Part shown: piece by piece, positions 3,564 through 48,257 of the stretch
Numbering within the stretch: position 1 is the first letter of the stretch
How the letters are laid out: every line of letters begins with the position of its first letter
DNA from: Escherichia phage vB-EcoP-XT18
Sequence record: OR757434.1
Length of the DNA: 64,000 nt
Strand: one strand, 5' to 3'
The notes under the pieces: generated by a model
Databases searched by the model: none
What the model saw: only the letters and a program-made list of their open reading frames with translations
What the model was told of the DNA's origin: nothing
Program-made: the position numbers and the translations under genes

Positions 3564-5049
<1,486 letters not shown>

Positions 5050-5059
<10 letters not shown>

Positions 5060-5664
5060 GTAATGAGCCTAAACCTTTAGTAGTAATTCTTAATGGGCCT
5101 CCGGGTTGTGGTAAGGATACGATAGCTGAGGAGTGGTTACTAAAATCCCACATTGCGTCTTATTCTCGTTATATTAAATCATTTAAAGAGCCTATGTACA
5201 AAGTCGCCTCCGCAGCATTAGGTTTGAACTTGGAGGATTTTCTGGAGTTTTATAAAGATCGAAACTGGAAAGAAAAACCTAGGCCTGAATGGGGAGGTAG
5301 GTCTGTCAGAGATTTAATGATTTCCACAAGTGAAGATTACTTAAAACCTATGTTTGGTAAGAACTACATGGGAACCCAAGCAGTAAATAGTATCAAGTCA
5401 GAAGGAAGGAATCACAATGATGTTATCCTGTTTACTGATGGTGGGTTTGAAGCAGAGGTGAGAGAGCTAGAAAAGTCTTTCAATGTAGTAGTAGTTCAAG
5501 TTCACAGGAATGGTTGTGATTTTTCTGGAGATTCTAGGAATTATATTGAAGGGGAGCAGTTAGAAACTTGTACATTATCCAACAATCGAACTATTTCGGA
5601 AGCTCGGTACTACTTGGATTGGATTATAGCTGAAAATAGAGATAAAGTTTATGGAAGAAGTTAA
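5050..5664 (+). CDS. P-loop kinase (dNMP kinase-like)
   Basis: Walker A LNGPPGCGKDT near N-terminus; size and context fit nucleotide or polynucleotide kinase. Confidence 0.45.
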
Positions 5665-6469
5665 GCTCCCTGAAGTAGCTATAGTGGATGCTGACGTTCT
5701 TCGATATGAAGTGGGTGCTCTTACTCAGGAGCATCCCTTCCTTGACACAGGACGTGTTCCAGTTGATTACAATTTCATGATTGAACGACTTCAGTACAAG
5801 ATAGATACTATAATTGCTCGATCAGGTTGCAGTAAGGTTGTGTTCTACTTCAGCGAAGGTGGTAACTTCCGTTTCGATGTTGCTAAGCAGCAAGACTACA
5901 AAGCAAACAGACCTCCCGGAGAAAGACCTTTCCACTGGCAAAACGTTGGTGATTACATTAAAGGTAAGTATGAATACATAGATGTATTTGGGAGAGAGGC
6001 TGATGATGCACTAGCTGAAAGGCAACGTAGGGATAAGAACACTATCATCTGTACTAGAGACAAGGATTTGTTGATAACTCCCGGATGGCACTACCGTTGG
6101 GCTTGTGGAGAAAGACAGAAAGAAGTTCCTCCTCACTATGTATCTGATTTAGTTTCATGGCAAAACTTCTTCTATCAGATGCTGATTGGAGATGGTACAG
6201 ATAATATCCCCGGATGTGGAGAACGTAAAGAAGTTATGTGGGGCGGTAAGCTTCAGCTTCGACGTCAAGGTGTTGGGAAGAAGGCAGCAGCTAATCTATT
6301 GGCTGGTGTTACAGATAAGTGGACCATGTATCATATAGTACGAATGGAATATTATAAGAGATTTGACATTGAAGATGAAGAGAAGATGCTTGAAAATGCT
6401 CGTCTGCTCTTTGTTGGTCAGACTCCGGAAGACCTGTTCGACTGGACATGGTTAAACAAATCTTGGTAA
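5651..6469 (+). CDS. 5'-3' exonuclease / flap endonuclease
   Basis: LIGDGTDNIPG...GKKAAANLL H3TH-type motif typical of Pol I-family 5' nucleases; acidic clusters DAD, EADD. Confidence 0.7.
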   Translation: MEEVKLPEVAIVDADVLRYEVGALTQEHPFLDTGRVPVDYNFMIERLQYKIDTIIARSGCSKVVFYFSEGGNFRFDVAKQQDYKANRPPGERPFHWQNVGDYIKGKYEYIDVFGREADDALAERQRRDKNTIICTRDKDLLITPGWHYRWACGERQKEVPPHYVSDLVSWQNFFYQMLIGDGTDNIPGCGERKEVMWGGKLQLRRQGVGKKAAANLLAGVTDKWTMYHIVRMEYYKRFDIEDEEKMLENARLLFVGQTPEDLFDWTWLNKSW

Positions 6470-6482
6470 TAAGGATATTATA

Positions 6483-6674
6483 ATGGGTAAATTTGATTAT
6501 CGTTCATATGATGAAAACTCCTCCAATCGTGAATCTCGTAAAGAGCAGCGTATTAAATACAGTCATGAATTAGGAAATCGCTATATTAAAGAAAAGCGTG
6601 AAAAAGTATCACATCGAGTAGATAAACGTGTATGGGAAGAAGATGATATGAGTATAGGTTATGGCGAAGGCTGA
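6483..6674 (+). CDS. hypothetical small basic protein
   Basis: ORF with RBS in compact block. Confidence 0.3.
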   Translation: MGKFDYRSYDENSSNRESRKEQRIKYSHELGNRYIKEKREKVSHRVDKRVWEEDDMSIGYGEG

Positions 6675-7062
6675 GAAGACACGCTGTAGTGGAATGTGGA
6701 CTGAAGCTCGTTACAACTCTTTCATCAAGTCAGGGATTCGTTCTCTGACTAGAAAGTGGAAGCCCATGTTCGATGCACTAGCAGACGCCAAGACAGAGCA
6801 GAAGGTTAATCCAAAGACAGGAAGACTGGCAATGCACTTTAAGTGTGCCATGTGTGGTTCTGACCACCCTGTAAAGGATATGGCTATTGACCACATAGAG
6901 CCTATAGTTCCTCTTGACCATGAAGCAACTTGGGATGAAATCATCTCTCGTGCTCTGTGTGAGAAAGAAGGTTTTCAGGTTCTGTGTAAAGACCCTTGTC
7001 ATAAGATTAAAACAAAAGAAGAGAATGATGCAAGAAAACAATTCAAAAAAGGAAATGAGTGA
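6661..7062 (+). CDS. HNH endonuclease
   Basis: CAMCGSDHP ... IDHIEPI ... LCKDPCH metal/HNH motif set. Confidence 0.5.
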   Translation: MAKAEKTRCSGMWTEARYNSFIKSGIRSLTRKWKPMFDALADAKTEQKVNPKTGRLAMHFKCAMCGSDHPVKDMAIDHIEPIVPLDHEATWDEIISRALCEKEGFQVLCKDPCHKIKTKEENDARKQFKKGNE

Positions 7063-33685: not shown

Positions 33686-35227
33686 TTAGTAGCTCTGATT
33701 CCATCTGCTTACGTTTGCCTCATACAAAGAAGCGCTTCCGTAGCTAACATCATGCTTAGAGCGACCACGATGTGTAACAGAGCACGCTGAATAGCGCATT
33801 GCATCCATTAAGTCATCATGTTCTTTAATAATCTTACCAACCTTACGGTGATATCTAGCTTTCTCTTCGAATAGCTTAGCGTTAGCGGCTGTGTTAAAGA
33901 CTTTAAAGCGTCCACTCATCATTCTTTCTCGGATATCTGTGATTCCCGGTTCTACAAAGAAGTTCTTTTTACCATCCATTCCAATTTTGTTGTAGAAGGT
34001 CTCACTCTGTACGTTAACTCCTGCATTCTTATAGAATTGAGCAACAGATGAGCCACTACCTTTCTCAGTATTGTCCGCATCATGCGGTAGGATGACAGGA
34101 ATCCACTGACCACGACCATTAATAGCTGGAGCATGATACACTGGAGTAAAGCCACCTTCTTTATATGAGTCGTAAACATAGATAGTATCCGTGTTTGCAT
34201 CGTAAGCTGTCCAAACAGCAGCAGTTGGGTGATCAATACCAATATCAATTGCACAGACACGTTTCCACGTATCAGGAATTTCGAATGGTTCACATTTAAT
34301 TGTGTCATCCGATACATCATATATCAAACCACTTCCTAACAATGGCATACCTTTTGAACGCATCTCTAACTGCCACGCTGGAATACCTTCAGTCATATCT
34401 TTTATATCTTGGTCAGTGATGTGTCCACCTAGGTCTGCATGAGCATCCCACCAAGAAGCATTCTGGAAATACAGAGAACCTGTGTTCTCATCTCCTTCAC
34501 CTTTCATAAATTTATCTACCAGTTCAGTTAAACCGTTCTCTGGTGTAGCTGTAATTGTAACTAGACCTTTAGTTGTGAGTGTACGTGTGACGCACTGTGC
34601 GAATATAGCCATAGACTCGTATGGATCTTCTTCGTCTAACCAAATGTAGTCAACTGTTGCACCCATCAATGTGTGTTCACCCTGTTGGGTTGAACGGAAT
34701 TCTAATGTACTTAAACCGTCAAACTCTCCTCTCTCATTTTGATGTTTGATTTGTACGATTTGAAGTTTGTTACCATCTCGTTCTATCGTATCAATGACGA
34801 TAGCATCACGAGGAATGACACCTGTCCCTAATAAATTTGTATCCTTTCCGATAGGTGTACCAAACAATTCCTTTTGCAATACTTTCCTTGTGGAATCCCC
34901 TGTAATACCAACTGCCCATGCTAAGATAGGTCTTTTAAATTTATATCCTGTCCACCAAGTTGGGTAGCGACCTGTGACATGACAAGCAAACTCGTATGCC
35001 TCGCTATAAGATTTACCAACACGGTTCGCTGCACACAAGAATCTAAAGCGATGCTTCAATCCTGCTGCATAAAATTTCTTTTGGAAGTCATACGCCTTGA
35101 AAGACAAAATCTTATTATACTTCCTCCATTGGTCACGCTCTTTCAACATATTCAATAGTGCTTTCTTTTCGTCTACACTAAGGTTGTTACCAGTTAGAGC
35201 TTCATAAATTTGTTTATCTAATGACAT
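33686..35227 (-). CDS. terminase large subunit
   Basis: Walker A-like CAANRVGKS near N-terminus, C-terminal nuclease-like acidic residues, 513 aa, upstream of portal. Confidence 0.7.
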   Translation of the reverse strand: MSLDKQIYEALTGNNLSVDEKKALLNMLKERDQWRKYNKILSFKAYDFQKKFYAAGLKHRFRFLCAANRVGKSYSEAYEFACHVTGRYPTWWTGYKFKRPILAWAVGITGDSTRKVLQKELFGTPIGKDTNLLGTGVIPRDAIVIDTIERDGNKLQIVQIKHQNERGEFDGLSTLEFRSTQQGEHTLMGATVDYIWLDEEDPYESMAIFAQCVTRTLTTKGLVTITATPENGLTELVDKFMKGEGDENTGSLYFQNASWWDAHADLGGHITDQDIKDMTEGIPAWQLEMRSKGMPLLGSGLIYDVSDDTIKCEPFEIPDTWKRVCAIDIGIDHPTAAVWTAYDANTDTIYVYDSYKEGGFTPVYHAPAINGRGQWIPVILPHDADNTEKGSGSSVAQFYKNAGVNVQSETFYNKIGMDGKKNFFVEPGITDIRERMMSGRFKVFNTAANAKLFEEKARYHRKVGKIIKEHDDLMDAMRYSACSVTHRGRSKHDVSYGSASLYEANVSRWNQSY

Positions 35228-39942: not shown

Positions 39943-40266
39943 ATGAAGAAGTTAATCGTTGGCTTGGCTGTTGGTTTGTCTTTGTTTGCTGGTAGTGCTA
40001 GCGCATACATGAAATGCGGAAGCATTGGAGTGGTCACAGCCTCTAATGGTGCTAAAAATCTCACCGCTTTAGGTAAGACTTGGTCCGCTACTGAGGTTAT
40101 CACTTTAGAAAATGGCTTAAAGGCTGTAATCTATGATAACCGGAAAGATGGTTCAATTCTTCGGGTTGTTCCTACGGAAGATGGGAAAACGGTTGCCATT
40201 ATCTATTATCGAGATGCGGAATCTAATCTTAATGGTAATCCTGTGCTTTCCGGTATGTGCCGATAG
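39943..40266 (+). CDS. secreted periplasmic protein
   Basis: Signal peptide MKKLIVGLAVGLSLFAGSASA. Confidence 0.4.
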   Translation: MKKLIVGLAVGLSLFAGSASAYMKCGSIGVVTASNGAKNLTALGKTWSATEVITLENGLKAVIYDNRKDGSILRVVPTEDGKTVAIIYYRDAESNLNGNPVLSGMCR

Positions 40267-40602
40267 TCTATCTGATGCTCTAAATCCTTCCTATAAGCCT
40301 CCTAGTGAGGCTTTTCTCATTTCTAAGGTGATTGTATTCCTTACCCTCCTTTAGCTCATTGTGATGCGTCTGAGAGCGTCAAATAGTGCTTTACAAGCCT
40401 GTTTTAGTATGTTATTCGCGTGCGCGTTCCTTTACCTACTCCTCTACGAAAAAGTTTAAAATAATTTGCTTTGCCCTATTGCATTACTCACTGGTTGGCG
40501 TATACTTCAATTCATCGGGTACGATGAAAAACATACAAGGCAAGAAATTGCCCCGCTCTTTAAAAATCAGGCTAGAAAGTGAAAAAATACTTGAAAAAGT
40601 AT

Positions 40603-40630
40603 TTGACAACTGGAAAGCCTAACCTATAAT
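40603..40630 (+). promoter_or_regulatory. near-consensus sigma70 promoter (TTGACA-16 nt-TATAAT)
   Basis: tatTTGACAactggaaagcctaaccTATAATgagc in ORF-poor region. Confidence 0.5.
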
Positions 40631-41055
40631 GAGCATAAGTCAGCGATGACGTGAAACATCCCCGCTCTTTAAAAACTTATCATCTTGCCCTTTCGCATAG
40701 ATTCAAGCGAGATAAGGGAAAAGAATAAAAGAAGATGATAAAAAAGAGGTTGCAAACGTGGTTAAGGTAGTTCATACTAACCACAAGTTAACAAAACAAC
40801 GTTAACTAGTTCCCAAGTCAACGTATCGCGGGAAAGGTGGCACATAGTGCAGCGAGTAGTTCGGGAGTAGGCGCCCCGTTAATGAATAAGTAAGCCTTTA
40901 ATGATGCAGTGATTAGCAGACACTATAAAAGGCTAAAAACGCTCTTTAACAATATGGATCATAAGTTTAAGCCTTATCGCTTAATCTTCAATCAAATAAA
41001 GCTGGTTGATATATCCTCCCAATAGCGGGAACGACGAAAAAGATTAAAAAAGCGG

Positions 41056-41084
41056 TTGACAGCAAAAACATCATGGTCCATAAT
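41056..41084 (+). promoter_or_regulatory. sigma70-like promoter (TTGACA-17 nt-CATAAT)
   Basis: gcggTTGACAgcaaaaacatcatggtcCATAATgagc; same ATAATGAGC downstream context as the first promoter. Confidence 0.45.
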
Positions 41085-42008
41085 GAGCGTACTCACTAGG
41101 CAAATCACCGCTTCAGTGAAAAGCGAAACAACGGCTTACAGTTGCGTAGCGTGAGAAAGCACGCTGACAGATTTACCGCTCTTTAATAATTTAAACGTCC
41201 CCATATATCGGTTAAATATGCTGGAAGATAATAACCATCGGAAAGCATACCAGATAAAACGGCGTAAAACTCCCTAAACCATCAGGGTAAACAGTTTTAC
41301 AATCCCTTAACTGGAAACGTCACCACTGATAAGCGGATTCATTGAGTACACGCAACGGTTTAAGCTAATCGCCCACGGTTAAGGGTAGCGGCGGCCATCG
41401 CTAACACGGTGCTACAGTGAAATAAGTTAATCAGGGCAGACAAGTCCGACGAAATAACGCTCAATTGAGAGCGGCGGGGGATGGTTAAAGGGTAGCAAAT
41501 TGCTATTTAACAATAAGGTTTAGTGTGAACGTTTACGATGCGAACGGCTTGAGATTCGTCTTATGATGAAAGTACATAGTCGGTTTATGTAGTAAACTCG
41601 CCGAAAGATATAAAACGCCGGAATAATAGGCGGTTAGTGACTCTTTCGCAATAGTATCCCATAGTGGGCGATGACTAGCGAAAGAGAGCTGATATAAAAG
41701 GATAGGCGGGAGCGAAAGCAAAGTAAACGATATTGCCGACGGTTACATCAATGTAACTAATTAGAGTCGGACGCACTGCCTTATTGTGGTGATTGATCAT
41801 CGCTATCAGGTCGGCTTGGTTTATAGCGACTAATTAAAGATACCAGTTGAAACACCACGGATAAGGGGGCGGCAAGGTTAACTCCTGACAAGACCGCCCC
41901 CCTTATCAATAATTACTTAACAATGAGTGATTATCGATAAGTCAATGGCGACTTAAAAAGCTCATAGAGAGCGGGGCATAGTGCCCTTACAATTGAAAGG
42001 TGAATATC

Positions 42009-42908
42009 ATGGCTAAAATTTTTAATCTGGTTAAAGAATCTGGTTTTAACGCACTGGCTAACAACATTCGCAGCAATAACGCGGCGATCAAACAAGATGT
42101 TTCTAATTTTCTGTTAGGGCACTTGCAGCACTTCCGTAGCAATGGTAAAAAGCTGGACGTATTGCAGGCGGCGGTCGATTTTCTGTTAACCGAACGTTTC
42201 CGCGATATGGATGTGATTGCCACTGCAATTACTTTCCTGACTCCGATCAAGTTTAACACCGATGCGGCAAATGGGCGTAAGAAGTGGATTAATCTGGAAG
42301 GTGAAGCGAAAGCGAAAGAAGATGCGAAAGAAGCGCAAATTAAGGCCAAAATGGAACAAAACCGAGCTCGCTGGTCAAATGCTTTCGAAAATTTTGCCCT
42401 CGGTCGTGAAATTGAAGTCGATAATCCTAACTTTTACAAAGGTTGCAATGACAACGTGGCGGCCCACCTTCAAATCCCGGCGAAAAATAAGGAAGATTTT
42501 AACCAAGATATTTACGCCTTAGTTGAACGCTTGAATGCAATCCGTATTGAAGCCAAATTGCTGGCTGATGAGCGCAACGGCGCTACCAGTGATAATACTA
42601 TTGCCTTGAGTGAAGAAGTGGGGAAAGTTAAAAAGTCCTTTGATTCACTCATCAAGAAAGTCACGGCTTCAACGGTAGCGATCTCTGACGACTATCTGAT
42701 GAACGCATCAAGCAAGGAGCTGGAATCACTTGATTCATATGCCGATGAAATGGAATCAACCATCGCAAAAATGCAGGAAAAATTGGATAATCTGCGCGGT
42801 CGTATCTCTTCAACAGTTGCAATCCGTACCGAACAAGCTGCGAAAGAAGAAGAGGAAGAAGTATTGCGTAAAGCGGCTGAGATTATGGCGGCACGTCAGG
42901 CGGCATAA
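42009..42908 (+). CDS. abundant early protein of unknown function (helical, Lys/Glu/Ala-rich)
   Basis: ATG with AAAGG RBS (track ORF from GTG 42000); followed by strong terminator. Confidence 0.4.
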   Translation: MAKIFNLVKESGFNALANNIRSNNAAIKQDVSNFLLGHLQHFRSNGKKLDVLQAAVDFLLTERFRDMDVIATAITFLTPIKFNTDAANGRKKWINLEGEAKAKEDAKEAQIKAKMEQNRARWSNAFENFALGREIEVDNPNFYKGCNDNVAAHLQIPAKNKEDFNQDIYALVERLNAIRIEAKLLADERNGATSDNTIALSEEVGKVKKSFDSLIKKVTASTVAISDDYLMNASSKELESLDSYADEMESTIAKMQEKLDNLRGRISSTVAIRTEQAAKEEEEEVLRKAAEIMAARQAA

Positions 42909-42932
42909 GTAAGACAATCTAAATAAACATAA

Positions 42933-42965
42933 GGCGCTATCTTAACGGGTAGCGCCTTTTCTTTT
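42933..42965 (+). terminator. rho-independent terminator
   Basis: ggcgcta ... tagcgcc hairpin then TTTTCTTTT. Confidence 0.65.
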
Positions 42966-43010
42966 ATCAGTGCATTGATTCAGTGCATTAATCAAAGAAT
43001 CTAATCAAAG

Positions 43011-44178: not shown

Positions 44179-44343
44179 TAGGAATATAGTCCCCTCTTTT
44201 AGTACTATGACGCTCTTTCTATCGCGTCGTGCCTTCTCCCCATTTGAAGCTTCCGCATAGCCGCCTTTGAGCGGCTTTTGTCGTTGCCGTAAGCGCATTT
44301 ACGAGTGTTTTTACTGCAATAGTCATGTATTGCTTTCAGGTTT

Positions 44344-48182: not shown

Positions 48183-48257
48183 GTCCCTATAGTTAAAAGG
48201 ATATAACAGATTTCTTCTAAAAATCCATTCTAGGTTCGAGTCCTAGTGGGGACGCCA
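48183..48257 (+). tRNA. tRNA-Arg (anticodon UCU), CCA encoded
   Basis: Hand-folded cloverleaf: acceptor GTCCCTA/TGGGGAC (one G-U), U8, D-stem GTTA/TAAC, anticodon stem GATTT/AAATC with loop CTTCTAA (U33, TCT), T-arm CTAGG-TTCGAGT-CCTAG, discriminator G, CCA. Confidence 0.75.

Follow-up and report, generated by a model that had tools for sequence, protein, structure and literature searches.

Promoter-linked boxA sequences precede a conserved structured leader RNA in the early region of a phiEco32-like Escherichia phage

The 64,000-nucleotide (nt) stretch of Escherichia phage vB-EcoP-XT18 analyzed in this study (sequence record OR757434.1; henceforth the window, to whose first base all positions refer) contains, at positions 40270 to 42008, a spacer which separates two blocks of early genes, all flanking genes being encoded on the + strand. 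The spacer harbors a series of sigma70-type promoters, four copies of a short repeat which matches the host boxA consensus, and a folded leader RNA which extends to the first gene of the downstream block, a homolog of phiEco32 gp124. Escherichia phage vB-EcoP-XT32 (OR757435.1), a member of the genus Kuravirus of the Gordonclarkvirinae, the phiEco32-like prolate podoviruses, matches positions 40000 to 42300 of the window with 100% identity on the reverse strand of its record. The spacer is present in 97 phage records, with identities of 74 to 100%, and the equivalent gap of phiEco32, located between genes 125 and 124, measures 1.9 kb; no similarity of the region to E. coli chromosomes was found. 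The upstream block of small early genes ends with base 40266. An earlier reading of this DNA, made from the letters alone (the sequence-only reading), had described the region as purine rich and poor in open reading frames (ORFs). The latter description held, the largest ORF within positions 40270 to 41999 being no longer than 78 amino acids (aa), and the former applies only mildly (55% purine) and is due for the most part to the abundance of A (33%; AT skew, +0.12 to +0.26).

The locus was compared among 25 phages of the genera Kuravirus, Suseptimavirus, and Nieuwekanaalvirus, whose loci total 129 kb. The promoters, boxA copies, and associated hairpins of the window are as follows.

40479 to 40506, + strand: P1, candidate sigma70 promoter (TTGCAT-16-TATACT; 8/12) with an A/T-rich upstream stretch
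40540 to 40553, + strand: small hairpin GGCAA-GAAA-TTGCC, adjoining boxA1 on its 5′ side in a boxB-like position (read from the sequence)
40555 to 40565, + strand: boxA1, GCTCTTTAAAA, similar, flank included, to the boxA of the E. coli rrn spacer (TGCTCTTTAAAAATCTGG)
40603 to 40630, + strand: P2, consensus sigma70 promoter (TTGACA-16-TATAAT; 12/12) with an A-rich UP-like element upstream and a predicted start at ~40637
40664 to 40674, + strand: boxA2, GCTCTTTAAAA, a consensus match
40677 to 40741, + strand: hairpin domain starting 2 to 3 nt 3′ of boxA2, with outer arms TTATCATCTT and AAGATGATAA complementary at 10/10 positions
40750 to 40778, + strand: P3, weak candidate promoter (TTGCAA-17-CATACT; 8/12), read from the sequence
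40941 to 40951, + strand: boxA3, GCTCTTTAACA, whose extended form CGCTCTTTAACAA agrees with the rrn leader boxA TGCTCTTTAACAA at 12/13 positions
41056 to 41084, + strand: P4, near-consensus sigma70 promoter (TTGACA-17-CATAAT; 11/12) with an A-rich upstream element and a predicted start at ~41091
41147 to 41166, + strand: boxB-like hairpin 5′ of boxA4 with the conserved purine loop AGAAAG (helix 4; 3/7 pairs compensatory, 98% of cells paired)
41178 to 41188, + strand: boxA4, GCTCTTTAATA, inside a 17-nt block, GATTTACCGCTCTTTAA, invariant in 25/25 phages

The sequence-only reading had placed near-consensus promoters at the positions of P2 and P4, each followed by ATAATGAGC, and both were found exactly as described; its suggestion of an early promoter array for the host polymerase was likewise right, sigma70 promoters having already been published for the same spacer of phiEco32 and SU10 (PMC4281155). 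As the number of promoter-like sites in the region (seven) does not exceed that in shuffled sequences (6.0), the evidence for promoter activity resides in the quality and conservation of P2 and P4, not in the number of sites. P4 was found in 25/25 phages and P2-type promoters in most of the 25. A-rich stretches lie upstream of all four promoters or candidates; both hexamers of P1 are retained across relatives while its 16-nt spacer diverges, and the site homologous to P3 in relatives reads TTGACA-16-TAGAAT.

The repeat which accompanies these promoters, CGCTCTTTAA, occurs in exact form at four positions of the + strand (40554, 40663, 40940, and 41177) which lie within 630 bp of one another, with no other exact copy in the 64 kb; approximately 0.1 occurrence of any given 10-mer would be expected by chance in a window of this length. 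The four copies had been counted correctly in the sequence-only reading, which also located three of them properly and misplaced the first by approximately 30 nt (near 40585 instead of 40554). The gammaproteobacterial consensus of boxA, the site recognized by the Nus factors, is GYTCTTTAANA (PMC5725501), and all four copies fit it exactly (from positions 40555, 40664, 40941, and 41178). Judged by its sequence, the repeated element is, thus, an rrn-type boxA, which had not been recognized as such in the sequence-only reading. With their flanks, the phage copies read CGCTCTTTAAAAATCAGG, CGCTCTTTAAAAACTTATCA, CGCTCTTTAACAATATGGATCA, and CGCTCTTTAATAATTTAAAC and resemble, flanks included, both the boxA region of the E. 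coli rrnH leader (TGCTCTTTAACAATTTATCA) and that of the 16S-23S spacer (TGCTCTTTAAAAATCTGGATCA). The order and orientation of the elements are directly apparent in the DNA: each boxA copy lies on the transcribed strand and is promoter proximal, the distances from the starts predicted from the window sequence (near 40513, 40637, 40785, and 41091) being approximately +43 for P1, +28 for P2, +157 for P3, and +88 for P4.

This arrangement extends to the 24 relatives, all of which possess four to six boxA copies per spacer except for a metagenome-derived contig, which has three copies and one mutated copy. Each boxA of the relatives lies downstream of a promoter of the type TTGACA-16/17-(T/C)A(T/G)AAT, and the copy number of boxA follows that of the promoter modules. 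In the 129 kb, the boxA consensus is matched 103 times on the + strand and once on the − strand, with freely varying flanks. Since the identity of the core among these 103 copies is fixed by the search pattern, the evidence for conservation comes from homologous positions, where copies that are not intact are rare; boxA3 and boxA4 are preserved in 25/25 phages. The boxA core is under selection. The translated upstream early operon is devoid of boxA, a distribution which fits a role in shielding untranslated RNA from Rho.

Two further exact matches to GYTCTTTAANA occur in the window outside the spacer, at 33820 (+ strand) and 47988 (− strand), both apparently antisense to the genes around them, one lying approximately 200 bp from a tRNA-Arg gene (48183); these could be chance matches, of which ~0.2 to 0.5 are expected per window. 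A boxA-like sequence at 41502 to 41512, GCTATTTAACA, was considered as a fifth Nus site and rejected, as it carries A for C at consensus position 4 and is part of covarying helices; a C-to-T change which this element has undergone in phage TH42 is offset by a G-to-A change in its partner, thereby keeping pair 446-760.

At boxA4 and boxA1, a small hairpin with a purine loop is located shortly before boxA, on its 5′ side, which is the order of rrn operons. The stem of the boxA4 hairpin varies from AGCGTG/CACGCT to AGTGTG/CACACT, AACGTG/CACGTT, GAAGTG/CACTTC, and GAGGTG/CACCTC among the relatives. At the position of the boxA1 hairpin, whose reverse complement was flagged as a stem-loop by a terminator and stem-loop scan, phiEco32 and SU10 carry a different stem (GCAC...GTGC). 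A 4-bp GNRA hairpin lies on the 5′ side of boxA2, and a 5′ hairpin at boxA3 is unclear. A lambda-type nut site was rejected on the order of its elements, the hairpin lying 5′ and not 3′ of boxA; we know of no N-like protein in this phage, and no search was aimed at such proteins. In rrn operons, boxC (UCUGUGUGGG) is located 18 to 19 nt 3′ of boxA and supplies the 5′ strand of a leader-trailer helix; in the spacer, the analogous place is taken by the 5′ strand of a covarying long-range helix (41190 to 41202 paired with 41477 to 41489).

The left half of the spacer is a mosaic of modules that have been duplicated and lost among the relatives, within which the sequence of the hairpin domain following boxA2 (40677 to 40741) is kept in all of them. 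The sequence downstream of boxA2 at 40673 to 40684 (AAACTTATCATC) is 92% complementary to that downstream of boxA3 at 40957 to 40968 (GATCATAAGTTT), 272 nt apart; judging from this complementarity, the two could form an alternative to the local hairpin of that domain and may represent a second pairing of leader-trailer type. A 155-nt insertion before boxA3 (approximately 40786 to 40936), present in a subset of phages, displays compensatory changes, e.g., GTTAAC...GTTAAC versus GTTAGC...GCTAAC.

Downstream of boxA4, the spacer is occupied by the leader RNA, whose parts are the following.

41190 to 41489, + strand: domain I (helices 6 to 19), closed by 41190-41202/41477-41489; helix 6 has 3 covarying pairs
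41490 to 41508, + strand: hairpin between domains I and II (fold of the window sequence)
41510 to 41787, + strand: domain II, closed by 41510-41527/41772-41787 and comprising, with the preceding hairpin, helices 20 to 32
41788 to 41990, + strand: domain III, a row of hairpins which includes a GC-rich hairpin
41965 to 41978, + strand: “anti-boxA,” TAGAGAGCGGGGCA, complementary (93%) to (TGCC)CCGCTCTTTA of boxA1, boxA2, and boxA4

Mean column identity across positions 41159 to 42008 in the 25 phages is 0.83 to 0.93, equal to that of the gp124 gene. Invariant columns make up 50.6% of positions 41190 to 42008, compared with 16.7% of third and 72 to 82% of first and second codon positions of gp124, and conservation in this interval has no 3-nt periodicity. 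That annotation has overlooked small proteins encoded in the spacer is, in our assessment, barely credible. Six to 11 “hypothetical proteins” are annotated there in the records of UKE3, CHD5UKE1, and EK5, and a 66-aa ORF lies within an insertion which only SU7 and PAS59 possess. However, the six ORFs tested within 41100 to 42011 are intact in 3 to 18 of the 25 phages and none of them in all 25, the absence of periodicity also speaks against translation, and the annotated ORFs differ between records and lie on both strands. The annotated genes in question (6 to 11 of 30 to 50 aa each, on both strands, in the records of 101114UKE3, CHD5UKE1, and EK5) are almost certainly false gene calls over structured RNA, and the structured RNA gives annotators a reason to drop spurious small ORFs in several records.

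RNAalifold applied to an alignment of the 25 sequences over 41085 to 42011 of the window yielded 241 pairs, 78 of which have compensatory double changes. As an independent test, the window sequence was folded alone into its minimum free energy (MFE) structure, which was then counted on the 25-sequence alignment. In this structure, 93.7% of cells are paired, compared with 35 to 48% when the 3′ partners were slid by one to three columns, and compensatory changes occur in 70 of 283 pairs (306 cells), the slid controls giving 7 to 16 pairs (8 to 28 cells). In 500 column shuffles, the observed values were never reached; shared ancestry inflates such shuffle-based statistics, whereas the slid-partner controls preserve relatedness. 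The MFE and centroid structures almost coincide. The signal is strand specific: canonical pairs account for 98.1% of the + strand structure and for 89.2% of its − strand mirror image, a difference which stems from the G-U pairs (9.5% of all pairs). The predicted folding energies are −261.6 kcal/mol for the + strand (z = −7.1) and −223.4 kcal/mol for the − strand (z = −3.9). Positions 41190 to 42008 are, thus, strongly supported as an apparently undescribed RNA whose + strand structure is conserved, and the sequence-only reading, which had listed a noncoding RNA locus among its options, is upheld on this point by the covariation.

The GC-rich hairpin that had been singled out in the same reading exists, at 41860 to 41907 and not at 41851 to 41898, and is helix 38 of the ~0.8-kb fold (6/8 pairs compensatory), not a stand-alone structure. 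It was rejected as an intrinsic terminator, as it is followed by ATCAATAATTACTT with no U-tract and is absent from the terminator scan. The closing helix of domain I begins on its 5′ side 2 nt 3′ of boxA4. The anti-boxA is invariant and lies 31 to 44 nt upstream of the start codon of the gp124 homolog; paired with boxA4, to which it is complementary, it would enclose the 0.8-kb RNA as a whole in the manner of the leader-trailer helix of pre-rRNA, an architecture described previously (PMC10250234). Positions 41190 to 42008 contain six occurrences of the motif CGGTT(A) (expected, 0.5) and four of GGTTAA (expected, 0.3), most of which lie in blocks without variation among the 25 phages; the CGGTT(A) repeat may be a protein-binding or tertiary-contact motif.

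An Rfam scan (Rfam 15), which had been suggested as a check, returned the tRNA at 48183 as the only match above threshold in the window, and positions 40200 to 42100 match no family (best match, E = 1.1). Weak matches to Ysr197, which coincide with boxA1/2, boxA3, and boxA4, were set aside, as were weak matches to SAM-VI and sR9, which are due to chance. ARAGORN detected no tRNA or tmRNA in the region. A role as a CsrA sponge was rejected, GGA being not enriched (10 observed versus 15.8 expected).

These results bear on the suggestion that the spacer is a mere promoter region, in which CGCTCTTTAA would be a by-product of duplicated modules or a DNA site and the RNA structure would be functionless. 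The module mosaic of the left half would allow repeats to arise by duplication, and shared ancestry does inflate shuffle statistics. Such an explanation is nonetheless highly improbable, given that the 11-nt core is the exact, independently defined host consensus and is invariant while its flanks diverge, that the strand bias is 103:1, that covariation affects 70 pairs compared with 7 to 16 in the slid controls, and that conservation far exceeds that of synonymous sites.

A replication origin, the third option of the sequence-only reading, can be considered in a transcription-activated or primed form similar to ColE1 RNA II or the T7 primary origin, in which the structured RNA gives rise to a primer or an R-loop. 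In its favor are the strong promoters, the long RNA that is structured and not translated, and the G/C runs of the hairpin at 41860 to 41907. The tests of GC skew, DnaA boxes, and iterons were all negative: the GC-skew minimum lies at approximately 37.5 kb, where gene orientation switches, with no turn in the spacer, and the region has no DnaA boxes or iterons but only one two-copy A-rich repeat. The G-U-dependent strand asymmetry also points to selection acting on the RNA, for which an RNA primer could account as well, and transcription must enter the early genes in any case. We regard an origin as improbable.

It is also conceivable that the folded 0.8-kb RNA is itself the main product, i.e., a stand-alone noncoding RNA (a decoy or scaffold, an anti-defense RNA, or a mimic of the rRNA precursor) which is released by processing, possibly at the boxA/anti-boxA helix, and whose high output the promoters and boxA copies serve. 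This possibility would extend, and does not exclude, the rrn-like transcription unit proposed below. It is consistent with purifying selection which across 0.8 kb equals that on protein-coding positions, with three domains held by long-range helices and many covarying pairs in a fold whose MFE and centroid structures agree, and with the retention in three genera of invariant loops and single-stranded blocks, CGGTT(A) repeats, and the 3′ anti-boxA. However, the sequence bears no sign of a discrete 3′ end (the GC hairpin being devoid of a U-tract), Rfam has no match, the lack of GGA enrichment argues against the CsrA sponge variant, and the leader-trailer pairing receives no support from covariation. 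A stand-alone RNA as the main product is, in our view, a real but minority possibility.

The leader is followed and the spacer preceded by the features listed here.

40295 to 40323, + strand: intrinsic terminator-like hairpin and T-run (AAGCCTCCTAGTGAGGCTT and TTCTCATTTC), closing the upstream early block
42009 to 42908, + strand: first gene after the leader, a homolog of phiEco32 gp124 (299 aa; phrog_13018, unknown function)
42931 to 42968, + strand: strong intrinsic terminator-like hairpin (12-bp stem and T-run; terminator scan) directly 3′ of the gp124 homolog

A terminator is annotated at the place homologous to 40295 to 40323 in the records of SU10, SU7, and 4E8, and a terminator after the upstream early block is mentioned in PMC4281155. 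A 107-aa ORF at 39943 to 40266 (+ strand) possesses an N terminus resembling a signal peptide or lipoprotein (MKKLIVGLAVGLSLFAGSASAYMKCG...) and has no PHROG or Pfam match; it is covered in full only by XT32 and XT73, the other relatives listed matching after it, and looks like an extra inserted gene which ends the upstream early block. A Pfam scan of the gp124 homolog was without match, and PHROGs and Pfam searches of the neighboring proteins gave no functional clue. No sigma70-like promoter was found on the + strand between the 42931 terminator and position 44300; the downstream early genes would, therefore, need read-through of this terminator.

The position of the leader also invites the explanation that it acts in cis on gp124 and the downstream early genes, as a delay or timer, a translational gate on the ribosome-binding site, or an mRNA stabilizer, with nothing acting in trans. 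The leader is situated directly upstream of gp124 with no promoter or terminator in between, positions 41132 to 41144 pair with 41990 to 42002 over the ribosome-binding site (helix 3 in the fold of the window), and the anti-boxA is 31 to 44 nt from the start codon; repression by Nus/boxA elements close to a start codon is known from suhB (PMC5725501). Nevertheless, 800 nt and ~40 helices go far beyond the needs of known translational gates, helix 3 is without covariation and is broken in three phages, and conservation is even along the leader, with no concentration near the ribosome-binding site. A purely cis-acting leader appears unlikely.

Pattern scans and an nhmmer profile search of IMG/VR and metagenomes retrieved the RNA only from phiEco32-like contigs, within which it is kept across three genera; a protein search with gp124 returned only five loci, and 27 matches to an 18-nt motif in bacterial genomes were dismissed as chance. 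A scan of IMG/VR for the promoter-boxA pattern gave at least 120 matches, mostly single ones. The T5-like Proteus phages PM135 (5990 to 7045) and Stubb (4800 to 5650), with genomes of ~104 kb, carry, in the terminal-repeat region, three to four modules of consensus promoter and boxA (e.g., TTGACA...TATAAT...CGCTCTTTAACAATTT) which precede the pre-early genes A1/A2, from which it follows that the promoter-boxA design is not limited to phiEco32-like phages. At the right genome end of Salmonella phage 7-11, a distant relative (4865 to 5917, − strand), approximately 1 kb of noncoding DNA lies upstream of gene 151 at the site of its validated sigma70 promoters; this leader has no boxA, no similarity to that of the window, and moderate predicted structure (z = −2.4), and gp151 is unrelated to gp124. 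The antitermination strategy of such phages was described by the authors of a study of 7-11 as still undefined (PMC8948821).

Taken together, it is likely that the spacer represents the main early transcription unit of the host RNA polymerase, built in the manner of an rrn operon from promoters, Nus antitermination, and a long folded untranslated leader. Early in infection, the E. coli sigma70 holoenzyme would initiate at P2 and P4 and probably also at the weaker P1 and P3. The nascent boxA would recruit NusB-S10 and, with NusA, NusG, and SuhB, would render the polymerase Rho resistant and processive, as would be needed because the next 0.8 to 1.5 kb are never translated. The modified polymerase may also read through the 42931 terminator into the downstream early genes. 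The RNA following boxA4 (41190 to 42008) is predicted to fold cotranscriptionally into its three domains, and since one strand of a long-range helix comes immediately 3′ of boxA, folding may be assisted by the Nus complex, similar to the chaperone role proposed for rRNA. Nus binding, antitermination, and chaperoning are presumed here from likeness to the rrn elements, as would be any function of the folded RNA itself, which could serve as a regulator in cis, as a stand-alone RNA after processing, or as a primer.

Several observations weigh against this rrn-like transcription unit. In the window sequence, P1 and P3 are weak by consensus (8/12); no boxC-like UCUGUGUGGG was noticed on reading the region, in which no pattern search for it was run; and a scan of C/G ratio for Rho-loading sites did not separate the leader from coding sequence. 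The boxA/anti-boxA helix (helix 5) has 8/10 pairs invariant, and covariation is therefore neutral either way. Antitermination of the rrn type acts mainly against Rho, so that read-through of the strong 42931 terminator is uncertain, and the long leader of phage 7-11, being without boxA, indicates that boxA is not universal in this lifestyle. As to precedence, the literature yielded no paper joining boxA with phiEco32 or Kuravirus with noncoding RNA, although an earlier mention in the primary phiEco32 transcription papers cannot be fully excluded. The boxA identity of the repeat and the large structured leader appear to be new, the promoters having been known already.

Beyond the rrn-like transcription unit itself, we tentatively put forward, as a more speculative extension, that the Gordonclarkvirinae carry a miniature mimic of the rRNA operon, in which the host antitermination and chaperone complex, recruited through rrn-like promoters and boxA elements, would make and fold a new three-domain RNA of ~0.8 kb bracketed by boxA and anti-boxA, which would be released as a stable particle to act in trans early in infection, through sequestration of a host factor or counter-defense.

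Phages of the phiEco32-like group are abundant and therapeutically used, and little is known of their early expression beyond the promoters and the gp36/gp79 switch. If the proposed transcription unit is correct, the placement of boxA behind every early promoter would amount to a hijacking of host rRNA antitermination without a phage N-like factor, a mechanism which may be widespread, given the same modules in T5-like Proteus phages. The 0.8-kb leader is, furthermore, a large RNA with strong covariation and no Rfam family; phages seldom yield large structured RNAs of unknown function, and those found have repeatedly opened new biology. The phage group is also reported to be resistant to many defense systems (PMC11990801).

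The closest parallel to the locus is the leader and spacer antitermination region of E. coli rrn operons, which comprises boxB, boxA, and boxC, is served by the rrnTAC complex of NusA/B/E/G, S4, and SuhB, and includes the leader-trailer helices around 16S and 23S. The locus shares with it strong promoters, A-rich upstream elements, a consensus boxA (GCTCTTTAA[A/C/T]A) whose flanks are rrn-like, a small hairpin on the 5′ side of boxA, and a long structured untranslated RNA downstream, as well as a long-range helix strand just after boxA and a boxA-complementary sequence at the far end (PMC10250234). In rrn operons, the leader strand is kept by boxA close to the RNA exit channel until its 3′ partner becomes available, an arrangement to which the closing helix of domain I is parallel. 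The phage locus differs from rrn operons in belonging to a virulent phage, in its RNA of ~0.8 kb without sequence relation to rRNA, in its tandem promoter-boxA modules, and in a predicted transcript which continues into protein-coding early genes. Outside rRNA, boxA shields long noncoding transcripts from Rho, e.g., those of CRISPR arrays (PMC7665894), and Nus targets include the 5′ untranslated region of suhB, where a boxA near the start codon can repress (PMC5725501). The phage leader has in common with these an early consensus boxA in an untranslated, Rho-exposed transcript; unlike them, its boxA is phage-borne, is present in four to six copies, one per promoter, and is followed by a conserved folded RNA in place of a repeat array or a single gene. 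Among virulent coliphages, the early promoter clusters of T7 (A1 to A3) and T5 (pre-early) and those of phiEco32 and SU10 likewise consist of strong sigma70 promoters near the early genome end which drive the early genes; the accessible parts of the published accounts of the phiEco32 and SU10 early promoters mention neither boxA nor a structured leader. With the lambdoid nut sites (boxA, boxB, and N), the locus shares a boxA on phage early transcripts and an adjoining hairpin with a purine loop (AGAAAG or GAAA). The boxA of lambda is the weaker CGCTCTTA and is located 5′ of boxB, whereas the locus described here combines a full rrn-consensus boxA with a hairpin on its 5′ side in a virulent podovirus which has its own sigma factor.

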